A DNA stretch of 40,227 bases, taken from UHGV virus genome UHGV-0148877; one strand, 5' to 3'. Below are positions 4,587-37,669 of this stretch, one piece after another. Every line of letters starts with the position of its first letter. Within the stretch, counting starts at the first letter, position 1. The notes beneath the pieces are model-generated. The model was not told the origin of the DNA. It searched no databases and worked only from the letters and a program-made list of their open reading frames with translations. Source of the stretch: a virus. Both the position numbers and the translations under genes were made by a program.

Positions 4587-4603
4587 ATTACCTTTCGGGT
4601 AAT
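4587..4603. promoter_or_regulatory. Operator palindrome ATTACC-TTTCG-GGTAAT
   Basis: Perfect 6+6 inverted repeat, about 75 nt upstream of the SOS-regulated small gene; an upstream hybrid copy ATTACC-TGAAA-AACCAC lies at 4538-4554. Confidence 0.55.
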
Positions 4604-4659: not shown

Positions 4660-4679
4660 ATTGCATGGAGAAGATTAAG

Positions 4680-4937
4680 ATGCAGCAGTATCACTATCCA
4701 CTGGAAGACGGATTTACCGAAAGGATTCACACGCCAGAAGGCGTCAGGTCACTGGTGGAGGGATCGCACTTGATGAAATTACTCCGGGATCTCGATAAGG
4801 ATGGATTTAATGTCGATGGCCCACTTGCCGAACTGACTGCACTGATTAACTACGTCACCAGCTCACAGATGTCTATGCAGGATCTGCAAACACATCTCGA
4901 CTATTGTGCCGAACAATTACGAAAACAAACCCGGTAA
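4680..4937 (+). CDS. Small SOS-regulated protein paralogous to the antirepressor C-terminal domain (candidate antirepressor)
   Basis: 85 aa from the ATG at 4680 (GGAGAAG RBS); LexA box directly upstream; aligns by eye (about 40% identity over about 40 residues) with the C-terminal about 70 aa of the Bro-N antirepressor at 6083-6769 (IHTPEGV/IHSPSGV, AELTALINYV/AELTTMFCYI, DLQTHLDY/DIQTHAEY). Confidence 0.5.
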   Translation: MQQYHYPLEDGFTERIHTPEGVRSLVEGSHLMKLLRDLDKDGFNVDGPLAELTALINYVTSSQMSMQDLQTHLDYCAEQLRKQTR

Positions 4938-5707: not shown

Positions 5708-5724
5708 ATTACTTTAAAGGTAAT
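5708..5724. promoter_or_regulatory. Operator-like palindrome ATTACT-TTAAA-GGTAAT
   Basis: 9/10 core match, 20 nt upstream of the start of the minus-strand membrane-protein gene (5688). Confidence 0.4.
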
Positions 5725-5817: not shown

Positions 5818-6082
5818 TTTACATCGCACTCCTCTTGTGCCATAGTAATCGGGCACTGGCAAAATCCAGTGCCGGGATTGGCGTCCCGAGTTACTACAGA
5901 GGCACATATGCCGCATAAGCGGTTTTTTTATGTGTAAAGCGCACCTATTCTATGGTGGGCTGTGTGGGGGCACCGAAAGGTGCGCCGGGTCCTTTGTAGC
6001 CGGTTACGCCAACCCTGCACAGTTCACCACCAACCGATTGGCGTCGGTAGTGGTGATTAACCTAACTACAAAGGTGATCGCT

Positions 6083-6769
6083 ATGACTGCTAACGTAACC
6101 CCATCTGTTTTTCATTTTGAATCAGAAGCAACCATTCGAGCCATTGTTATTGATGGAAATCCTTGGTTTGTTGCCAAAGACGTTATTAAAGCTCTTCAAC
6201 TGACAAACCCCACTATGTCAATAAAATCTCTTGATGATGATGAAAGGGCTAAATTTAACTTAGGCCGTCAAGGCGAAACCAATATTATCAACGAGTCAGG
6301 CCTCTACACACTGATCCTCCGCTGCCGCGACGCAGTGACACCAGGCACTATCCCCTACCGCTTTCGTAAATGGGTTACAGGTGAGGTTCTTCCTCAGATC
6401 CGCCGCACCGGAAGTTACATTAAAAACTCGCTCCCGCAGGAAGAACGCATAAAGATGGTTGCCGACCAGGTAGCCAACGCCACGGCGTCAGCAGTAATGC
6501 AGGCGATGAAGATAGAGAACAAAACCTACAGTGCCCCACTGAAGCCCGGCTACCGCAGCCTGATTCATTCGCCGTCTGGTGTTCTCGGCCTGACGGAGAA
6601 CTCACTGCTGATGAATCTGCTGAACCAGTTACAGGACGACGGGCACGACGTATCGGGCGCGGCGGCGGAGCTGACCACCATGTTCTGCTACATCGTCGGT
6701 GTGAGCAAATGCCTGCGTGATATCCAGACGCACGCGGAGTACATCAACGACAAGGCAGGGTTCTTCTGA
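6083..6769 (+). CDS. Antirepressor with Bro-N domain
   Basis: 228 aa from the ATG at 6083 (AAGGTGA RBS); N-terminus IRAIVIDGNPWFVAKDVIKAL matches the Bro-N pattern; C-terminal domain paralogous to the 4680-4937 product. Confidence 0.8.
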   Translation: MTANVTPSVFHFESEATIRAIVIDGNPWFVAKDVIKALQLTNPTMSIKSLDDDERAKFNLGRQGETNIINESGLYTLILRCRDAVTPGTIPYRFRKWVTGEVLPQIRRTGSYIKNSLPQEERIKMVADQVANATASAVMQAMKIENKTYSAPLKPGYRSLIHSPSGVLGLTENSLLMNLLNQLQDDGHDVSGAAAELTTMFCYIVGVSKCLRDIQTHAEYINDKAGFF

Positions 6770-19720: not shown

Positions 19721-20158
19721 TTAACCAGTTACTTTTGAGCGGATCGGATACGGCGTATTGGCATCAACATCAAGACTGATACCAGCAGTGAATTCGCCAG
19801 CCGTTAGTGGGCCAGTTGCGACGGAGTAGTTAACACGCAGATATCGCTGAACACCGGCAGGCACCTTTGCAGAAACAACTCGTTTACCTGCTGTCAGGGC
19901 GGTCTTTGCCAGTGCGCCACTATCATAAATAGTGGTCCATGAGCTGTTATCCTCACTCGTCTGCAACTGGATGTTTACAGTTGCATCACCGCTTGCCGCG
20001 GCGGCTGTGTTAACCAGCGCCCAAAACTCAAGCGGGTAACCCACGCCGATATCACGACGTTTTCCGTCAATTGGACCGAGATCGATTACGTCAGTAGAAG
20101 CCGCGGTATTCGTAACCGCCTGAGCTTCGGAGAACATCAACAGTTTGTCGGTGATCAT
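19721..20158 (-). CDS. Putative capsid decoration / structural protein
   Basis: 145 aa, Ala/Thr/Gly-rich beta-type composition, directly downstream of the major capsid gene. Confidence 0.45.
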   Translation of the reverse strand: MITDKLLMFSEAQAVTNTAASTDVIDLGPIDGKRRDIGVGYPLEFWALVNTAAAASGDATVNIQLQTSEDNSSWTTIYDSGALAKTALTAGKRVVSAKVPAGVQRYLRVNYSVATGPLTAGEFTAGISLDVDANTPYPIRSKVTG

Positions 20159-22205: not shown

Positions 22206-22488
22206 TGGCCTCTTTGGCCATCTTTAAATACTGTTCAGGGCAATGCGCCATAACGCGCTGAAACAGTTCCAGCGCCAGATTGCGTTGCCCCTCATTAAAT
22301 GCCATAGCCATAGCGTCCATCGGTGAGATAGCAGAAAACACACGGCCTTTCTCCAGCACCGACCAGACAACGCGACGCCCCTGTTCACTGCTCATGACAA
22401 AGCGAATGTCATCAATTTCACGCTGTGCCATGTCACGTTGCTTACGGGCGTTTTCTTCTTTCAGTTGATCGTCTTCGTAATCTGTCAT
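22192..22488 (-). CDS. Hypothetical head-module protein
   Basis: 98 aa ORF whose start overlaps the portal stop. Confidence 0.4.
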   Translation of the reverse strand: MTDYEDDQLKEENARKQRDMAQREIDDIRFVMSSEQGRRVVWSVLEKGRVFSAISPMDAMAMAFNEGQRNLALELFQRVMAHCPEQYLKMAKEASEQR

Positions 22489-24474: not shown

Positions 24475-24491
24475 ATTACCTTTCAGGTAAC
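24475..24491. promoter_or_regulatory. Operator palindrome ATTACC-TTTCA-GGTAAC, with a TTGACA hexamer at 24454-24459
   Basis: Perfect TTACC-N5-GGTAA core; same TTGACA-then-palindrome arrangement as at 34689-34733; oriented toward the plus-strand tRNA. Confidence 0.55.
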
Positions 24492-24812: not shown

Positions 24813-24889
24813 GTGGCATTAGCTCAGTTGGACAGAGCAACCGCCTTCTAAGCGGTTGGTCGCAGGTTCGAATCCTGCATGCCACGCCA
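24813..24889 (+). tRNA. tRNA-Arg (anticodon UCU)
   Basis: 77 nt folded by hand: 7-bp acceptor stem GTGGCAT/ATGCCAC, D stem GCTC/GAGC, anticodon stem ACCGC/GCGGT with loop CTTCTAA (anticodon TCT), T stem GCAGG/CCTGC with loop TTCGAAT, discriminator G, encoded CCA. Confidence 0.9.
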
Positions 24890-25076: not shown

Positions 25077-25205
25077 AAGGTGTGAATCATGAAATACGAA
25101 TTCGATGGATTTTGATGTCGTGACATGTCACAAACAGCCAGCCGATGAGCTGGCTTTGTTTTATCCTCACCAGAGGATATCAGCAGCATTATCCCCTCCA
25201 GAGGA

Positions 25206-26681
25206 TTAAGCATAGGGATCGTAATCTGTAATGGCCTTGCCTTGCTGGTTCTGCTGACCGGGAATTCGCAGACGCTTCGACACCGGGAAAGCAAACGTCA
25301 GCAGTAGCGCATCGCCTTTACCCGGCGAACGCCCAAGCCGCTCCTTGATATCTTCCTTCGGTTCGATAACGATTTTACCGTCCACGCGAACTTTGTACTC
25401 TGCCGCCGACAGGTCGTCCGCTGTTTCCTGGTCATCCAGCATGCCGCCCAGCCTCAGCCATGTCTTGCATGCATTGAACATCTCCCCACGCTTGTTAAGC
25501 ATCTGCGGGTCAGTGGACGCACCGCCGAACGGAACAAGTTGCCATGTACGTCCCCAGCCATCACCGATTGACTTCAAACCGGTTCCGTAACCGAAGTCGA
25601 TGAACACCGCGTCAGCCTGGTACTGGTCTTCAAAGTCAGCGATACGCTTCGCCATAATCAGATCGTCGGTGGTCTTGTTGCCAGTCCACAACACCTTACT
25701 GTGCAGCCCCTGCCGCAGGTATATCACAGCGTCATCAACGCCGGAGTATGCAGGGTCAACGCCGATTATCACCGGAGCATGTGCCACCTGCGCAGCAGTT
25801 ACCACCCGTTTCATTGCCTCGTCAGTAAGACCGGTAGGGATAAACTGCAATTCAGATGCATCAGGGAATATGCCGCGCACACGGATTTTAACGAAGTCGC
25901 TGTCTTCCCCGTAGTCATCAACCCATTTCTGCAACTGCTGTTTGTTGGTGCCTTCCACCGTCCGGCTGTCAATCTGCGCAGTTTTCCAGCGGTGTTTATA
26001 TTTGCGGAAACATTCGCGGAAACGCCCGGTATTACGCGTCGGGTTCCCGAACGCCACCCAGATGATTTCGGTGTCTTCGTCCGTCAGCGCACCCTCTGCT
26101 ACCTCCCACACCAGATCGGCAATGTTGGATGCTTCGTCGAAAACCACGATGATGCGTTTGCGCTCGTTGTGTAGTCCGGCGAATGCCTCAGTGTTGTGCT
26201 CAGACCAGGGGATTGCGTCAGCTCGCCACCGCTTGTCGTGCCCAGGATCATTGCTGTACATCGCGGTAGCGGTACAGGTAAACCAGTCTTTCGTGATGGC
26301 AAGGTTCGACCACTTGATAATTTCCGGCCAGGTCTTCGTTCGTAGCTGGTTGTCGGTGTTGGCGGTCACCACGACCTTACAATCCTCGCAAGTGGACATG
26401 CCCCAGTTGATCAGCATTGAGATGAATGCGGATTTACCAATACCGTGACCAGAAGCGCGTGCCAGCATAAGCGGCTGATATCGCGTCTCTGGATTCTGCA
26501 GGTGATCACGTATCTCTCGGAACGCATCGGCCTGCCACTGACGTGGACCGGTGGCATGTGCCAGTTCAGTACCCTCTTCCCCCCACGGGAACGCATAGAG
26601 GGCATAGCCAAGCGGATCGTGAGTGAACCCTGCAATATCCTCGATCAACTGCTCTTCAGGAGATAACGCTGTATCTGTCAC
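25206..26681 (-). CDS. Terminase large subunit
   Basis: 491 aa; N-terminal ATPase region with a Walker A-like GHGIGKS and C-terminal nuclease-like region; start (GTG with AGGATGG RBS) overlaps the TerS stop. Confidence 0.85.
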   Translation of the reverse strand: MTDTALSPEEQLIEDIAGFTHDPLGYALYAFPWGEEGTELAHATGPRQWQADAFREIRDHLQNPETRYQPLMLARASGHGIGKSAFISMLINWGMSTCEDCKVVVTANTDNQLRTKTWPEIIKWSNLAITKDWFTCTATAMYSNDPGHDKRWRADAIPWSEHNTEAFAGLHNERKRIIVVFDEASNIADLVWEVAEGALTDEDTEIIWVAFGNPTRNTGRFRECFRKYKHRWKTAQIDSRTVEGTNKQQLQKWVDDYGEDSDFVKIRVRGIFPDASELQFIPTGLTDEAMKRVVTAAQVAHAPVIIGVDPAYSGVDDAVIYLRQGLHSKVLWTGNKTTDDLIMAKRIADFEDQYQADAVFIDFGYGTGLKSIGDGWGRTWQLVPFGGASTDPQMLNKRGEMFNACKTWLRLGGMLDDQETADDLSAAEYKVRVDGKIVIEPKEDIKERLGRSPGKGDALLLTFAFPVSKRLRIPGQQNQQGKAITDYDPYA

Positions 26682-27274
26682 TGATTACCATCCTGACGTT
26701 CTTTGAGTCGCTTCCTGGCTGCTGCTATGCGATCAGCAATTGTCACATTCACATTAACATCCAGACGTTCTTTGAACGCGTTGACATCAACATGCTTACC
26801 AATCAGTTCTAGGTTCTTCACCTTGTCAGGCCATTTAATTTTTTTGAGGATTGTCTCTATCGAATCCTCGTTCATGTTCATGATGGTCGATGACAGATCA
26901 AAGCCACTAAGCGTAGTGCGCCAGATTTTCGGCCACTCACGGATTGGTTTAAGGCTCCCATCGTCGTTGAGGATGTCGATCACGTCCATCTGGTCGATCT
27001 CCACCAGGCGCATGAGAACGTAATCAGCACTGACGCGCATTCGTTTGTTGCGCTCCTCCATCAACTCGGCAATCCGTTTCTGAATGCGTTCATCGCGCAT
27101 CATGACACTGGCTTTAACTGCCGCTGTATTTGGGGAGAATCCTGCGTTAATCGCTGCCTGAGTCTGGTTTTCAGGCGTTTTGATGTATGACTGGCAATAA
27201 GCCTCCTGCATTGCAGTTAGTGGCTTAAATTGCGTTGATTTGCGTTTATAGGTTTTAGGTTCAGCAGGCATCAT
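26678..27274 (-). CDS. Terminase small subunit
   Basis: About 198 aa from the internal ATG pair at 27274/27271 (MMPAEPKTYKRK...); immediately upstream of TerL and overlapping its start; the track's longer N-terminus would run through operator-like repeats. Confidence 0.6.
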   Translation of the reverse strand: MMPAEPKTYKRKSTQFKPLTAMQEAYCQSYIKTPENQTQAAINAGFSPNTAAVKASVMMRDERIQKRIAELMEERNKRMRVSADYVLMRLVEIDQMDVIDILNDDGSLKPIREWPKIWRTTLSGFDLSSTIMNMNEDSIETILKKIKWPDKVKNLELIGKHVDVNAFKERLDVNVNVTIADRIAAARKRLKERQDGNQ

Positions 27275-27290
27275 AACCACCGTGGTAATA

Positions 27291-27307
27291 GTTACCGTTG
27301 TGGTAAT
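27291..27307. promoter_or_regulatory. Operator palindrome GTTACC-GTTGT-GGTAAT before the late (terminase) genes
   Basis: Perfect TTACC-N5-GGTAA core; part of a 14-bp direct repeat (GGTA(C/A)CTATTACCAC x2 on the minus strand) between an early-operon terminator and the TerS start. Confidence 0.5.
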
Positions 27308-27316
27308 AGTACCATG

Positions 27317-27346
27317 CAAAATAAAGCCGCCATAGTTGGCGGCAGT
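27317..27346 (-). terminator. Intrinsic terminator between the early/nin-like block and the terminase genes
   Basis: On the minus strand GCCGCC-AACTAT-GGCGGC hairpin followed by TTTATTTTG. Confidence 0.5.
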
Positions 27347-27392
27347 ATTCAAAACCCATCAAATTCATCATGCATAATCTACTCGTGACATT

Positions 27393-27734
27393 TCACACTA
27401 TTAATTTCGTTTCATGCCAGCCTTTAGTCACCCAGCATTGCGAGTCACCATTACAAGGGCATGAATTAACTGGAACTCTCTCGCCGCACTTACCGCAACG
27501 TTTTCTGCTGATCGATTTTATACGCCCGCGCACGCGTGCATCATCCTGGCGGATCAGTAACGCTATATACTCACCAAATTCGTAAGGCGCACGCCCGGGG
27601 CGACGCGTGGCACAGTTACGCTCCAGCATTTCAATTTCCTGAGCATCAAGCACAATTTCCAGCTTACGCACACCAGATGCAGCTTGTCTTGCTCTCTGAG
27701 CGGCTTTGCGCTCTGCTGCTGATTTAGCCATCAA
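27393..27734 (-). CDS. Small regulator-like protein with Cys-rich zinc-finger-like C-terminus
   Basis: 113 aa; basic N-terminal region then CGKCGERVPVNSCPCNGDSQC; last gene before the terminator that precedes TerS. Confidence 0.45.
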   Translation of the reverse strand: MMAKSAAERKAAQRARQAASGVRKLEIVLDAQEIEMLERNCATRRPGRAPYEFGEYIALLIRQDDARVRGRIKSISRKRCGKCGERVPVNSCPCNGDSQCWVTKGWHETKLIV

Positions 27735-31549: not shown

Positions 31550-31566
31550 TTTACCCCTGAGGTAAT
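31550..31566. promoter_or_regulatory. Operator palindrome TTTACC-CCTGA-GGTAAT
   Basis: Perfect TTACC-N5-GGTAA core abutting the start codon of the 31203-31547 gene. Confidence 0.5.
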
Positions 31567-31611
31567 TAAAAACCACATAAGACACGAAATCAATAGATTT
31601 TAGAATATTTT

Positions 31612-31628
31612 ATTACCCAGCAGGTAAT
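31612..31628. promoter_or_regulatory. Operator palindrome ATTACC-CAGCA-GGTAAT
   Basis: Perfect 6+6 inverted repeat with 5-bp spacer in the P to nin intergenic region. Confidence 0.55.
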
Positions 31629-33277: not shown

Positions 33278-33478
33278 TCAGCTTGAATGTTGTGGGGAGG
33301 AATTAATCATGATCTGCTTAATCTCTGCCCTGATACGACGGTTTGATTCCATGGTGCACTCAACACAGTGTCCGTTGTAAACCCAGCGTTCACTGTCATG
33401 TCCGTGCTTACATGTTTTTCCGGTGTAGTAGCGTTTAAGTCCGCGCTTTGCGGCATCAATACGTGTAATGATTTCCAT
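33278..33478 (-). CDS. Small Cys-containing protein between cro-like and O genes (cII position)
   Basis: About 66 aa from the internal ATG at 33478 (MEIITRIDAAKRGLKRYYTGKTCKHGHDSERWVYNGHCVEC...); C-x3-H ... C-x2-C spacing suggests a zinc-binding motif. Confidence 0.4.
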   Translation of the reverse strand: MEIITRIDAAKRGLKRYYTGKTCKHGHDSERWVYNGHCVECTMESNRRIRAEIKQIMINSSPQHSS

Positions 33479-33557
33479 GGTAAGCCCTGTTATTAGTATT
33501 GGGATTACGGTTATTTTGTGCTGACACAAAAAAAAGATCAACCACATTTGGTTTTTT

Positions 33558-34013: not shown

Positions 34014-34598
34014 ATGAAAAGTATCCAGGACGTCCGCAGGCAAAATCTCAACGACTTGATCGACCGTGAATTCAATGGTGTTCAGACGCGGATGGCTGAA
34101 AAACTTGGAACTCAGGCAAATCTGGTAAACCGCTGGGCTCTTGGCAAGAAGGTTATCGGCGACCAGGTTGCGCGAAAAATTGAAGCTGCCGCCAATAAAC
34201 CCCGTAACTGGCTTGATATCGATCGCTCGCTTTCTCAGGAAGGTTTTCAGCCTGTCGGCCCGAGTGATATAGGTCAGCTGGCTGCTCACAACCTGGAACG
34301 CTGGATGAGCGAAAGCCGCGACCTTTCAACGCAGGGAAAACTACACCGCGCATCCGGCGTCGCCCAGGTGACAATCAGCCGCCTGTTAAACAATGAGGTC
34401 AGCGTTTCCATTTCCACCCTGGAGAATGTTGCATCCGCATTCGGGCGTCATGGCTATGAATTACTGATTCACCCGCACGACCCTGCGACTATCAACTATG
34501 ACCGCTCGCGCTACGCATTGTTACCCGAAACCGAGAAAGCAAAGATCGAAAGTTACATTGAATTTGTCATCAACCAGAACGAAAAAAACAAACAATAA
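34014..34598 (+). CDS. Prophage repressor (CI-like, HTH; no S24 peptidase domain evident)
   Basis: 194 aa; N-terminal HTH (GVQTRMAEKLGTQANLVNRWALGKK) and a second HTH-like segment (ASGVAQVTISRLLNNE); divergent from cro-like gene; flanked by operator clusters; followed by a terminator. Confidence 0.7.
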   Translation: MKSIQDVRRQNLNDLIDREFNGVQTRMAEKLGTQANLVNRWALGKKVIGDQVARKIEAAANKPRNWLDIDRSLSQEGFQPVGPSDIGQLAAHNLERWMSESRDLSTQGKLHRASGVAQVTISRLLNNEVSVSISTLENVASAFGRHGYELLIHPHDPATINYDRSRYALLPETEKAKIESYIEFVINQNEKNKQ

Positions 34599-34654: not shown

Positions 34655-34671
34655 ATTACCTAACGGGTAAT
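34655..34671. promoter_or_regulatory. Operator palindrome ATTACC-TAACG-GGTAAT
   Basis: Perfect 6+6 inverted repeat immediately after the repressor terminator. Confidence 0.55.
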
Positions 34672-34688
34672 TTTTTTAACTCATATCT

Positions 34689-34733
34689 ATTGACATCAAA
34701 CCAGATACGCATAATTATTACCTCAACGGTAAC
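34689..34733 (+). promoter_or_regulatory. Left-arm promoter region with TTGACA and operator ATTACC-TCAAC-GGTAAC
   Basis: TTGACA at 34689-34694; palindrome at 34717-34733; extra GGTAAC half-site at 34741-34746; precedes the first plus-strand early ORF. Confidence 0.5.
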
Positions 34734-35206: not shown

Positions 35207-36024
35207 AACCGGGAATTTATTTCGACATCAGCAACGAAGACTACCACGCCGGTGACGGCGTGAGTAAGTCGCAACTGGACATGGTTGCCAAGAATCCGGC
35301 GCTTCTTAAATGGGTTCAGGCAGCACCAGAAGACGAAGAGAAAAAGTCTGCACTGGATATGGGAACCGCATTGCACTGTCTGCTTCTGGAGCCTGGAGAG
35401 TTCGACAAACGCTTCATTGTTTCACCGAAATTCGATCGTCGGACGAAACAAGGTAAAGCTGACGAAGAGGAATTTCTTCGTGATGTGGCGGATATGGGGA
35501 TTACGGTACTTGATGCCGAGCAGTGGCGGAAACTGGAGCTGATGCGTGATAGCGCAATGGCTCACCCGGCGGCACGCTGGATGCTGGAAGCACCTGGTTA
35601 CTGCGAAGCATCAATGTACTGGAACGATGAAGAGACGGGGGAGTTGTGCCGAATTCGTCCAGACAAATGGCTGAACGAGCACAACGTGATCGTCGACGTG
35701 AAAAAGGTTGCAGATATGGACCGTTTTGCACGCCACATCGAGGAATTCCGCTACCACGTGCAGGACGCAATGTACCGCGAAGGCGCAATGAGGGTTACTG
35801 GTCAGCCGCATGGTTTTTTCTTTCTTGCCGTGAGCGAAAGCATTGATTGTGGTCGGTATCCGGTACGCGTGTTCGAGCTGGATGCGCAGGATGTCGATGC
35901 CGGGCACGCTCTGTTCCGCCGGGATCTGAATACCTATCACGAATGCCGCATCAATGATGAATGGGGCGGTGTGGAAATCATTAAACGCCCTGAGTGGGCA
36001 CGCAAACAGGATATGTACATATGA
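35203..36024 (+). CDS. PD-(D/E)XK-family exonuclease (RecE-like recombination partner)
   Basis: 273 aa; motif IRPDKW...VIVDVKKV consistent with a PD-(D/E)XK nuclease; translationally coupled (ATGA) to the RecT gene. Confidence 0.65.
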   Translation: MKPGIYFDISNEDYHAGDGVSKSQLDMVAKNPALLKWVQAAPEDEEKKSALDMGTALHCLLLEPGEFDKRFIVSPKFDRRTKQGKADEEEFLRDVADMGITVLDAEQWRKLELMRDSAMAHPAARWMLEAPGYCEASMYWNDEETGELCRIRPDKWLNEHNVIVDVKKVADMDRFARHIEEFRYHVQDAMYREGAMRVTGQPHGFFFLAVSESIDCGRYPVRVFELDAQDVDAGHALFRRDLNTYHECRINDEWGGVEIIKRPEWARKQDMYI

Positions 36025-37260: not shown

Positions 37261-37373
37261 GTGAGCTGCTAAGGCACTGGAGCAAATGGTCAGGATGGTA
37301 CTTATTCCTGGCCTCTGTTTCAGCATGGCTTTATCTACTGGCATTAATTTTCAGAGAGGGTTGGATTAAGTGA
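37257..37373 (+). CDS. Small hydrophobic peptide (below the ORF-track cut-off)
   Basis: 38 aa (MSELLRHWSKWSGWYLFLASVSAWLYLLALIFREGWIK), one predicted TM helix; ATG overlaps the AlpA stop (ATGA) and its stop overlaps the next start (GTGA). Confidence 0.25.
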   Translation: MSELLRHWSKWSGWYLFLASVSAWLYLLALIFREGWIK

Positions 37374-37669
37374 GAAAGTTAAGCCGACTTGAAAAATATC
37401 ACATGAATAAGGTTTCAATGCGCAGTCCGTCAAAGATTGTCGCCGTTACTCCTGCGGCGATAGAGATCGAAAAACGCGCGATTGAAAGAGAGAAAAAAGG
37501 GCAATTCCGCATTGCCGCTCACCTTTGGCTTCAGTGTATGGATGTTGCTTCTGGTGATGTTGAACGTGCAAGGATCGCGGTTCGCAGGGACCAATGTATC
37601 ACAAAAGGTAACGGCCTTCGCCGTGGCGACTATAGCGGAATAGGATGTTGTGGGGTGGTTTATGACTAA
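37370..37669 (+). CDS. Small regulator-like protein (PerC/ANR-like pattern)
   Basis: 99 aa; AAHLWLQCMDVASGDVERARIAVRRDQCI resembles the A-x2-LW-x2-C...ER...AR...C pattern I recall for small PerC/ANR-type regulators; low-confidence family call. Confidence 0.35.
   Translation: MRKLSRLEKYHMNKVSMRSPSKIVAVTPAAIEIEKRAIEREKKGQFRIAAHLWLQCMDVASGDVERARIAVRRDQCITKGNGLRRGDYSGIGCCGVVYD

Follow-up and report, generated by a model that had tools for sequence, protein, structure and literature searches.

The junction between the early genes and the packaging genes of the virus genome UHGV-0148877, analysed here over the 40,227 nt of one strand that we call the window, probably consists of an intrinsic terminator, a promoter reduced to an extended -10 element and two adjacent operators for the phage repressor Rep. 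Rep would thereby repress the unit formed by the genes of the terminase small subunit (TerS) and TerL, and the 112-amino-acid protein encoded by the last early gene would target a different element, a 12-bp palindrome at the end of its own gene. A terminator followed by a repressor-controlled promoter in front of TerS is ordinary and essentially known. It would mean, as for epsilon15, that the packaging and structural units of this prophage are under direct repressor control and do not depend on a lambda-style cascade alone.

The phage and its junction module

Judged by its sequence, the window is an epsilon15/phiV10-like (Uetakevirus) prophage whose minus strand carries the late genes. A region of 1.6 kb around the junction is 92-98% identical to the temperate podophages of this group, and the closest relatives of this region are the E. 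coli O157 typing phages 9 and 10, PAS61, TL-2011b and phiV10. At a query coverage of at least 80%, the junction module was found in 497 of 5,426 complete E. coli genomes, or about 1 in 10. At the junction, a search of Rfam gave no match to a known RNA family. On the minus strand, the replication and nin-like genes are followed by the open reading frame (ORF) of 113 codons that specifies the small basic protein, and then by TerS, TerL and the portal gene. TerS (26678-27271, minus strand, 197 amino acids) is the first packaging or late gene, and it most likely starts at the ATG at 27271 (MPAEPK), because this start agrees with the annotations of epsilon15, TL-2011b and Tyrion and with the onset of the Pfam (PF03592) and PHROG (51) matches.

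Two Rep operators in front of TerS

The initial annotation of this stretch, made from the letters alone, had described a 14-bp element GGTA(C/A)CTATTACCAC repeated twice within 43 nt of the TerS start. The repeat is real and its location is confirmed, as the copies lie 2-43 nt upstream of the ATG at 27271. Its register was off: the first copy reads GGTA-CTATTACCAC and the second GGTAA-CTATTACCAC, and the exact in-register direct repeat is the 11-nt sequence ACTATTACCAC, present at 27310-27300 and 27292-27282 with a spacing of 18 nt. The chance expectation for such 11-nt pairs is about 0.015 in 351 nt. The same annotation had called 27291-27307 (GTTACC-GTTGT-GGTAAT) a perfect palindrome, which holds for the 5-bp arms TTACC/GGTAA, whereas the 6-bp arms pair at 5 of 6 positions. 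A second 17-mer palindrome of the same kind, at 27273-27289, had been overlooked. Written on the minus strand, the distal palindrome is ATTACC-ACAAC-GGTAAC (27291-27307) and the proximal one ATTACC-ACGGT-GGTTAT (27273-27289), each with one mismatch to the consensus ATTACCNNNNNGGTAAT (ATTACC-N5-GGTAAT). We therefore read the direct repeat as two adjacent 17-bp Rep operators, 18 bp apart from centre to centre. The distal operator covers the last 2 nt of the predicted -10 hexamer and the predicted start site, and the proximal operator takes in the Shine-Dalgarno sequence (GGTGG, 27281-27277) and borders on the start codon of TerS. With putative repressor operators overlapping both a conserved extended -10 element and the TerS ribosome-binding site, derepression at this site, which had been one of two earlier suggestions for late control, is well supported.

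The same motif is spread over the genome. At up to 2 mismatches it occurs 15 times in the window, compared with 1.21 +/- 1.13 times in shuffled sequences, and none of 100 shuffles reached 15. Operators lie on both sides of the gene for their presumptive cognate repressor, rep (33943, 34655 and 34717). Rep itself (34014-34598, plus strand, 194 amino acids), which is expected to bind them, is aligned by phmmer over its full length with the Rep protein of SPC32H (PDB 5D50, E = 4e-42). Two promoters carry a pair of operators each, with the -10 hexamer fused to the proximal operator: the early-left promoter (34655-34733, plus strand; TTGACA, 17 nt, AATTAT), with operators at 34655-34671 and 34717-34733, and an internal early-right promoter (31550-31628, minus strand; TTGATT, 17 nt, TTTAAT), with operators at 31612-31628 and 31550-31566. 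A further operator (24475-24491) precedes the gp3-like gene and the portal/structural unit, with orthologues annotated in epsilon15 (2931-2947) and present in Tyrion (3968). A perfect match (4587-4603), with the tailspike gene on one side and a small divergent ORF on the other, has its orthologues at the annotated epsilon15 site 19895-19911 and at Tyrion 21775. Three more motif matches, at 5708, 5801 and 6841, fall in the conversion/antirepressor region. In Tyrion, 10 operator sites are found at equivalent positions.

The operators of the two pairs are exactly 62 bp apart, centre to centre, at 34655/34717 and at 31612/31550, and the same holds for 34194/34256 and 37264/37326 in Tyrion. This spacing, which the phages of E. 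coli and Enterobacter share, suggests that a single Rep tetramer forms a loop. Rep has been reported to be a tetramer that binds palindromic sites (PMC9638917).

Conservation of the junction was assessed in 26 distinct versions of the 83 nt preceding the TerS ATG, which came from 141 loci of E. coli, Salmonella and Enterobacter phages. They align without insertions or deletions. The arms of the distal operator are invariant except for the last base (C or T), and in its spacer three of the five positions (-29, -28 and -26) are variable. The proximal operator is more variable, yet it never departs from the consensus by more than 2 mismatches. This appears to be the pattern of a protein-binding site and not that of a coding sequence. 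GCATGGTATTATTACCTAAAAGGTAAT still directly precedes TerS in a Klebsiella phage that has an unrelated gene upstream and lacks the terminator.

There is a precedent for these sites in epsilon15, the record of which (AY150271.2) contains eight sites annotated as 'protein_bind: repressor, lysogeny'. These include 12-27 before TerS, 2931-2947 before gp3/portal, 19895-19911 before the tailspike gene, three sites downstream of the repressor gene and 35906-35922. The five that we compared (the TerS site, the sites next to the repressor gene and 35906) all fit ATTACC-N5-GGTAAT. The site before TerS, to which the distal operator of the window is orthologous, has the same position, after the gp49 gene and its terminator, and the other locations agree as well. 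The two phages differ in that only the distal site is annotated before TerS in epsilon15 and no promoter is annotated there. The direct repeat is visible in the window because its proximal site matches the consensus better than that of epsilon15 does.

Two other systems invite comparison. In SPC32H, a LexA-controlled antirepressor, Ant, reportedly inactivates Rep. The window resembles this Rep/Ant switch (Rep structures PDB 5D50/5D4Z) in having a full-length Rep homologue and, beside an operator, a LexA-box-like sequence in front of a small ORF, and it differs in that the identity between the Rep proteins is only about 50%. The arrangement in question is the perfect operator at 4587, followed by a sequence with a LexA-box-like beginning, TACTGTATA, and then by a 90-amino-acid ORF (4665-4937). 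By comparison with the SPC32H system, we take this ORF to be a candidate LexA-controlled antirepressor. The second system is mycobacteriophage L5, whose repressor gp71 acts at 'stoperators', many repressor sites distributed over the genome, with late regions included. Common to both phages is one repressor with about a dozen sites across early and late units. The sites of the window are symmetric 17-mers on promoters, whereas those of L5 are asymmetric 13-mers oriented within transcribed regions, and the proteins are unrelated.

The terminator, the predicted TerS promoter and the proposed mechanism

A minus-strand intrinsic terminator had been proposed at 27317-27346, and it is present. It closes the early-right operon (27318-27343, minus strand) and is made up of a stem-loop at 27343-27326 (GCCGCCAACTATGGCGGC) followed by the T-tract TTTATTTT at 27325-27318. 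The hairpin has a 7-bp stem with 6 G-C pairs and a free energy of -16.2 kcal/mol (z = -4.1 against shuffles), and with its GC-rich hairpin and U-tract the element has the composition of a rho-independent terminator. The orthologous element in the epsilon15 record is annotated as such. Among the 26 junction sequences the stem is retained, and the single change, A to G, keeps the pairing as a G-T wobble.

Directly downstream we predict, from conservation and register, an extended -10 element, TGgTACTAT (27306-27314, minus strand), with the hexamer TACTAT at 27311-27306. TGn stands directly upstream of a hexamer with A2 and T6, as in an extended -10 element, and TGnTAyTAT occurs in nearly all relatives. 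Most of the variation among the 26 sequences concerns the n of TGn and the third base of the hexamer (24 C, 2 T); position 4 is changed in two cases, each in one sequence only. The element is also retained in the Klebsiella phage whose upstream sequence is unrelated. As for register, the -10 hexamer and the operator have two bases in common, the last two of the former being the first two of the latter, at the TerS promoter, at the early-left promoter (AATTAT|TACC, 34717) and at the 31550 promoter (TTTAAT|TACC). Transcription would then start at about 27299, with a leader of about 28 nt; both values are reasoned predictions.

Taken together, these elements suggest the following sequence of events. 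The terminator at 27343-27318 would stop early transcription and insulate the packaging unit. In the lysogen, Rep bound to the TerS operators would shut off TerS-TerL directly, and Rep is likewise expected at the operators before the portal/structural unit and the tailspike gene, at the internal early promoter and at the two promoters of the immunity region. Where Rep is absent, as during infection, or is inactivated, as by the LexA-controlled antirepressor of SPC32H, the TerS promoter would become available.

Several points speak against this interpretation. The TerS promoter has no -35 element, because the -35 position falls in the terminator. A scan for consensus promoters made no call at the TerS junction, and TGNTAYTAT is no more frequent in the window than expected (2 occurrences for an expectation of 2), so that the promoter call is based on conservation and register only. 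The TerS operators are 18 bp apart, compared with 62 bp at the two other pairs. The annotation of repressor sites in epsilon15 may itself be a prediction only. Moreover, a promoter under the control of Rep alone has no built-in delay for late genes, and an additional factor may be needed for their late timing.

The 112-amino-acid protein

The last early gene had been described as encoding a 113-amino-acid basic protein with a C-terminal Cys cluster. The ORF (27393-27734, minus strand) is real and its product is basic and rich in Cys; the length needs correction, as the homologues start at the ATG at 27731, which gives a gene at 27393-27731 (minus strand) and a protein of 112 amino acids. It has a pI of 9.8, with 23 K+R against 13 D+E, and its Cys residues are at positions 40, 79, 82, 91, 93 and 99. 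An N-terminal ribbon-helix-helix (RHH) and a C-terminal Cys cluster (C79, C82, C91/C93, C99) are predicted. The protein belongs to the epsilon15 gp49/N15 gp46 family, and its sole family match is PHROG 536, 'transcriptional regulator'; no sequence match was obtained in Pfam or the PDB, and the NCBIfam match to a LexA-regulated RHH protein reached only E = 0.053. Homologues are epsilon15 gp49, N15 gp46 and ZF40 gp22, and others occur in Klebsiella, Yersinia, Aeromonas and many Vibrio phages. An exhaustive profile search gave 214 clusters at 50% identity, nearly all of them of 100-135 amino acids. An AlphaFold model from a shallow alignment was poor (pLDDT 70), and fold searches with it were uninformative. 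A deeper alignment yielded a model with a pLDDT of 90.6, in which the RHH fold (beta-alpha-alpha) is combined with the Cys cluster. According to this model, the protein is an RHH DNA-binding protein with a zinc cluster.

The earlier label 'Zn-finger-like' was a fair one; the modelled RHH fold comes in addition. The Cys cluster weakly resembles the zinc fingers of TraR/DksA. The family profile gave weak matches to zinc-finger proteins in the PDB (E = 0.013-0.04), among them YbiI (E = 0.013) and TraR (0.03). With hhalign, TraR aligned to residues 47-105 with a probability of 72% and E = 3.5e-5, and DksA gave E = 0.009. No similarity to the late activators Ogr/Delta of P2/P4 was detected, and the hhalign control with Ogr gave E = 0.19 over 5 columns. 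What the protein has in common with TraR/DksA (F TraR, lambda Orf73) is a weak profile similarity over residues 47-105, including CxxCG..P....F.G...C, and the fact that these too are small proteins borne by phages or plasmids. The hallmarks of TraR are DxxDxA and CxxC-17-CxxC (PMC9239242). The 112-amino-acid protein has no DxxDxA, the aligned residues being R44, R47 and P49; its Cys pattern is C79xxC82-8-C91-7-C99, with the fourth TraR Cys aligned to a residue other than Cys; and it carries a 46-residue RHH-type N-terminal extension. Neither TraR nor DksA is among the top fold matches of the model. Because DxxDxA and CxxC-17-CxxC are absent, the sequence argues that the protein is not a member of the TraR family.

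A 12-bp palindrome accompanies the family

The candidate binding site of this protein is the near-palindrome GTGAAATGTCAC at 27385-27396, which has one mismatch to the consensus GTGACATGTCAC (GTGAC-N2-GTCAC) and overlaps the TGA stop codon of the gene. A second, exact copy, GTGACATGTCAC, is found at 25120-25131, 4 nt after a hairpin that follows the stop codon of TerL. This copy has the same place in epsilon15 (2142) and in Tyrion (2702, past an inserted reverse-strand gene), and the sequences of the flanking hairpins differ. A third site, at 22425, has one mismatch and is located in a coding region; about 1 such site is expected at up to one mismatch, and it is probably there by chance.

At the stop codon of the gene, the palindrome is retained in 42 of 45 distinct downstream contexts, and two of the remaining three contexts come from loci that break off at the stop codon. 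It is perfect in most close relatives and persists wherever the sequence around it changes. It was found beside the homologues in epsilon15, Tyrion, PAT1, the Klebsiella phage, ZF40, N15 and metagenomic phages, and metagenomic family members that are only about 30% identical show the same association of gene and palindrome. It also follows the gene where the stop codon is a different one, as in ZF40 (TAA TT GTGACATGTCACA) and in the L135 group. In N15, GTGACTGGTCAC is found at the gp46 stop codon. Among more distant loci, GTGACAGGTCAC overlaps the stop codon in L178, lies 14 nt after it in L179-181, precedes the start codon by 4 nt in L182 and falls on the annotated start codon in L184. In L186, GTGACGGTCAC, with a 1-bp spacer, is found 13 nt after the stop codon, and L185 has one-mismatch copies only.

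Over whole genomes, the exact GTGAC-N2-GTCAC occurs three times each in epsilon15 (2142, 19517 and 39612), Tyrion (2702, 20377 and a copy spanning the ends of the record), N15 (28550, 33237 and 39269), ZF40 (5125, 7622 and 14944) and Vibrio K303 (21342, 33227 and 35942); it is present a single time in the window and likewise in a P2-like phage of Yersinia. In otherwise unrelated phages that encode the gp49/gp46 family there are about three copies per genome, one of them at or next to the family gene. The expectation is about 0.04 per genome, and lambda, used as a control, has none. All 17 exact sites of these 7 phages have a 2-bp spacer; other spacings are essentially absent, and N3 was seen once, in K303 only. 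On this evidence of co-occurrence, the palindrome, and not the operator repeat, is probably the binding site of the 112-amino-acid protein. We found no published description of this 12-bp phage palindrome.

Its arms are identical to those of matS, GTGACRNYGTCAC, the site of MatP, an RHH protein that organises the E. coli Ter macrodomain. The matS sequence is the one given in PMC3603311, where true matS is also reported to be absent from 500 prophages. The two sites differ in their spacer, which is 3 bp in the 13-bp matS (GTGAC-RNY-GTCAC) and 2 bp, once 1 bp, in the phage palindrome. The proteins also differ, as the N-terminal four-helix bundle and the C-terminal coiled coil of MatP are absent from the 112-amino-acid protein, which has the zinc cluster instead. 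Sequence similarity between the two is not significant (E = 0.037-0.56), and the best alignment falls on the RHH region of MatP.

The flanks of the palindrome diverge immediately after GTGACATGTCACGA, and by this pattern the palindrome at the end of the gene marks a mosaic joint. About 30% of the close relatives carry an additional small gene, whose point of insertion is exactly behind GTGACATGTCACGA (window positions ~27368-27385; loci L100, L105, L122, L132 and L165). Klebsiella-type relatives have a LexA-box promoter and a UmuD-like gene at that same spot.

Late-gene control and alternative explanations

The absence of a recognisable Q-like antiterminator had been noted before and still stands, as none was detected among the 30 ORFs scanned with Pfam and/or PHROGs. 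Searches of Pfam and NCBIfam gave no Q match for the 112-amino-acid protein. The paper on vB_EcoP_ZX5 contains nothing on late control. The broader idea that the 112-amino-acid protein helps to control late transcription is possible, though not by way of the repeats, and it gains some support because the family gene occupies the position of Q in distant phages. In L178 (4435-4545), L179 (4467-4580), L184 (~480-640) and Vibrio K303 (L171, 33336-33500), the family gene is followed by a module made up of a sigma70-like promoter (for example TTGACG, 18 nt, TATAGT), a leader of 50-100 nt and an intrinsic terminator, and then by lysis or terminase genes. The promoters are near consensus in L179 and L184, and in 3 of the 4 phages (L178, L179 and K303) the leader shares a GTGGTGTTG-like stretch. 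This layout recalls Q and the PR'-6S RNA-tR' region of lambda, as does the window itself, where the gene of a small regulator is the last of the early block and precedes a terminator and the late genes. The likeness has limits: there is no sequence similarity to Q families, the candidate DNA site is not between -35 and -10, and the window has no clear promoter between the 112-amino-acid gene and the terminator, its late unit having a predicted repressor-controlled promoter of its own. RHH proteins are mostly repressors, which counts against a role in late activation.

The best surviving alternative to a Rep-controlled TerS promoter is antitermination. In this scheme, the 112-amino-acid protein at the palindrome would engage RNA polymerase that arrives from the early operon, or that started at a weak overlapping promoter, and would allow it to read through 27343-27318 into TerS, while the Rep operators would serve as a safety lock in the lysogen. 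It would account for a gene that comes last before the terminator and the late genes, for the PR'/tR'-like layout of the four distant phages, for a Cys cluster that resembles the zinc fingers of the RNA polymerase-binding TraR/DksA and for the lack of a canonical Q in the window. It would also fit the location of the palindromes of epsilon15, Tyrion and the window, which at the ends of operons, after gp49 and after the TerL unit, stand beside terminator-like hairpins; in epsilon15 and Tyrion one also follows the last gene of the structural operon. We nevertheless consider it quite unlikely. Neither similarity to any Q family nor the hallmarks of TraR are present, and in N15 and ZF40 a Q-like gene is annotated elsewhere, in addition to the family gene. 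The distance between palindrome and promoter is not conserved (-91.5, -95.5, -110.5 and -138.5), and about 30% of close relatives have the extra gene between palindrome and terminator. For the same reasons, differing distances and genes inserted in close relatives, we rejected an activator acting at a fixed distance from the palindrome. The candidate promoter over the palindrome (TTAATA, 17 nt, TAGATT) is weak, agreeing with the consensus at 8 of 12 positions only, and it is not conserved; it was rejected as well.

A wider form of this idea can be put forward as a speculation, one that we regard as doubtful. The 112-amino-acid protein and its homologues might represent an undescribed family of regulators, in which a MatP-like RHH domain recognises a matS-like palindrome, retained next to the gene and at one or two further operon ends, and a TraR/DksA-like zinc module contacts RNA polymerase, so that the protein would be a new analogue of Q that gates terminators, in epsilon15-like phages on top of repression by Rep. 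If this is true, a Q analogue would be present in many phages of Enterobacterales and Vibrio and in marine phages. 

Apart from this speculation, a small and widespread phage protein listed as 'hypothetical' or 'transcriptional regulator' gains a confident predicted fold, a precise candidate DNA site and a recurrent position that points to late-gene control. If these are confirmed, they would explain late-gene control in Uetakevirus-type and several other phages that have no recognisable Q, and they would reveal a phage-borne relative of the matS recognition code.

The other alternatives concern the repeat itself. According to the initial annotation, the 113-amino-acid protein might be a dedicated late activator that acts on the repeated GGTA..TATTACCAC units (27284-27310) and switches on TerS. 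The gene and the repeats do adjoin, and the promoter has no -35 element, as is often the case for activator-dependent promoters. This is very improbable, however, as the repeat is the Rep operator motif, of which the genome has 15 copies, some of them around the rep gene, and belongs to the Rep regulon, and as the family also occurs where the junction has no such motif (N15, ZF40 and Vibrio K303) and is always accompanied by GTGAC-N2-GTCAC.

Still less probable is a role of the repeats as packaging signals, that is, as TerS sites comparable to the R sites of lambda cosB upstream of Nu1. They are immediately upstream of TerS and several phage records begin nearby, but the starts of these records are annotation conventions that lie at 27353-27392 and differ from one record to the next, and we rejected this reading on the genome-wide spread of the motif, which is concentrated at the immunity region. 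The least probable reading, in which the repeats are coding sequence and form an N-terminal extension of a 224-amino-acid TerS starting at TTG 27352, has in its favour a frame that is open from 27352 and the long form annotated in the RefSeq record of phiV10 (NC_007804.2, 41-715, equal to window 26678-27352), and it was rejected on conservation and on the onset of the domain: translation would cross the terminator hairpin and both operators, the Pfam and PHROG matches begin at residues 45 and 29 of the long ORF, other records use the short form (one with an annotated ribosome-binding site), the substitutions in the operator spacers would alter amino acids, and the Klebsiella relative has the same operator behind a different upstream sequence. 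The long TerS of phiV10 is probably a misannotation of the start codon.

Other features of the window

A few further features were noted outside the junction. The gap that separates TerL from the gp3/portal unit contains a tRNA-Arg (TCT) gene (24813-24889, plus strand), encoded on the strand opposite to theirs. A homologue of the PerC family of transcriptional activators (37370-37669, plus strand; Pfam PF06069, PHROG 868) is part of the early-left operon. Between the cro-like gene and the replication gene there is a small early ORF rich in Cys (33278-33547, minus strand) with a CxH..CxxC cluster, which belongs to PHROG 1081 (function unknown). At 5853-5929 Rfam identified the Hfq-binding RNA isrK, and at 5948-6034 a C4 antisense RNA, as in the immI region of P1/P7. 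These RNAs are upstream of, and overlap the start of, a gene for a Bro-N antirepressor-like protein (5930-6769), and the Rep operators at 5708 and 5801 are nearby.

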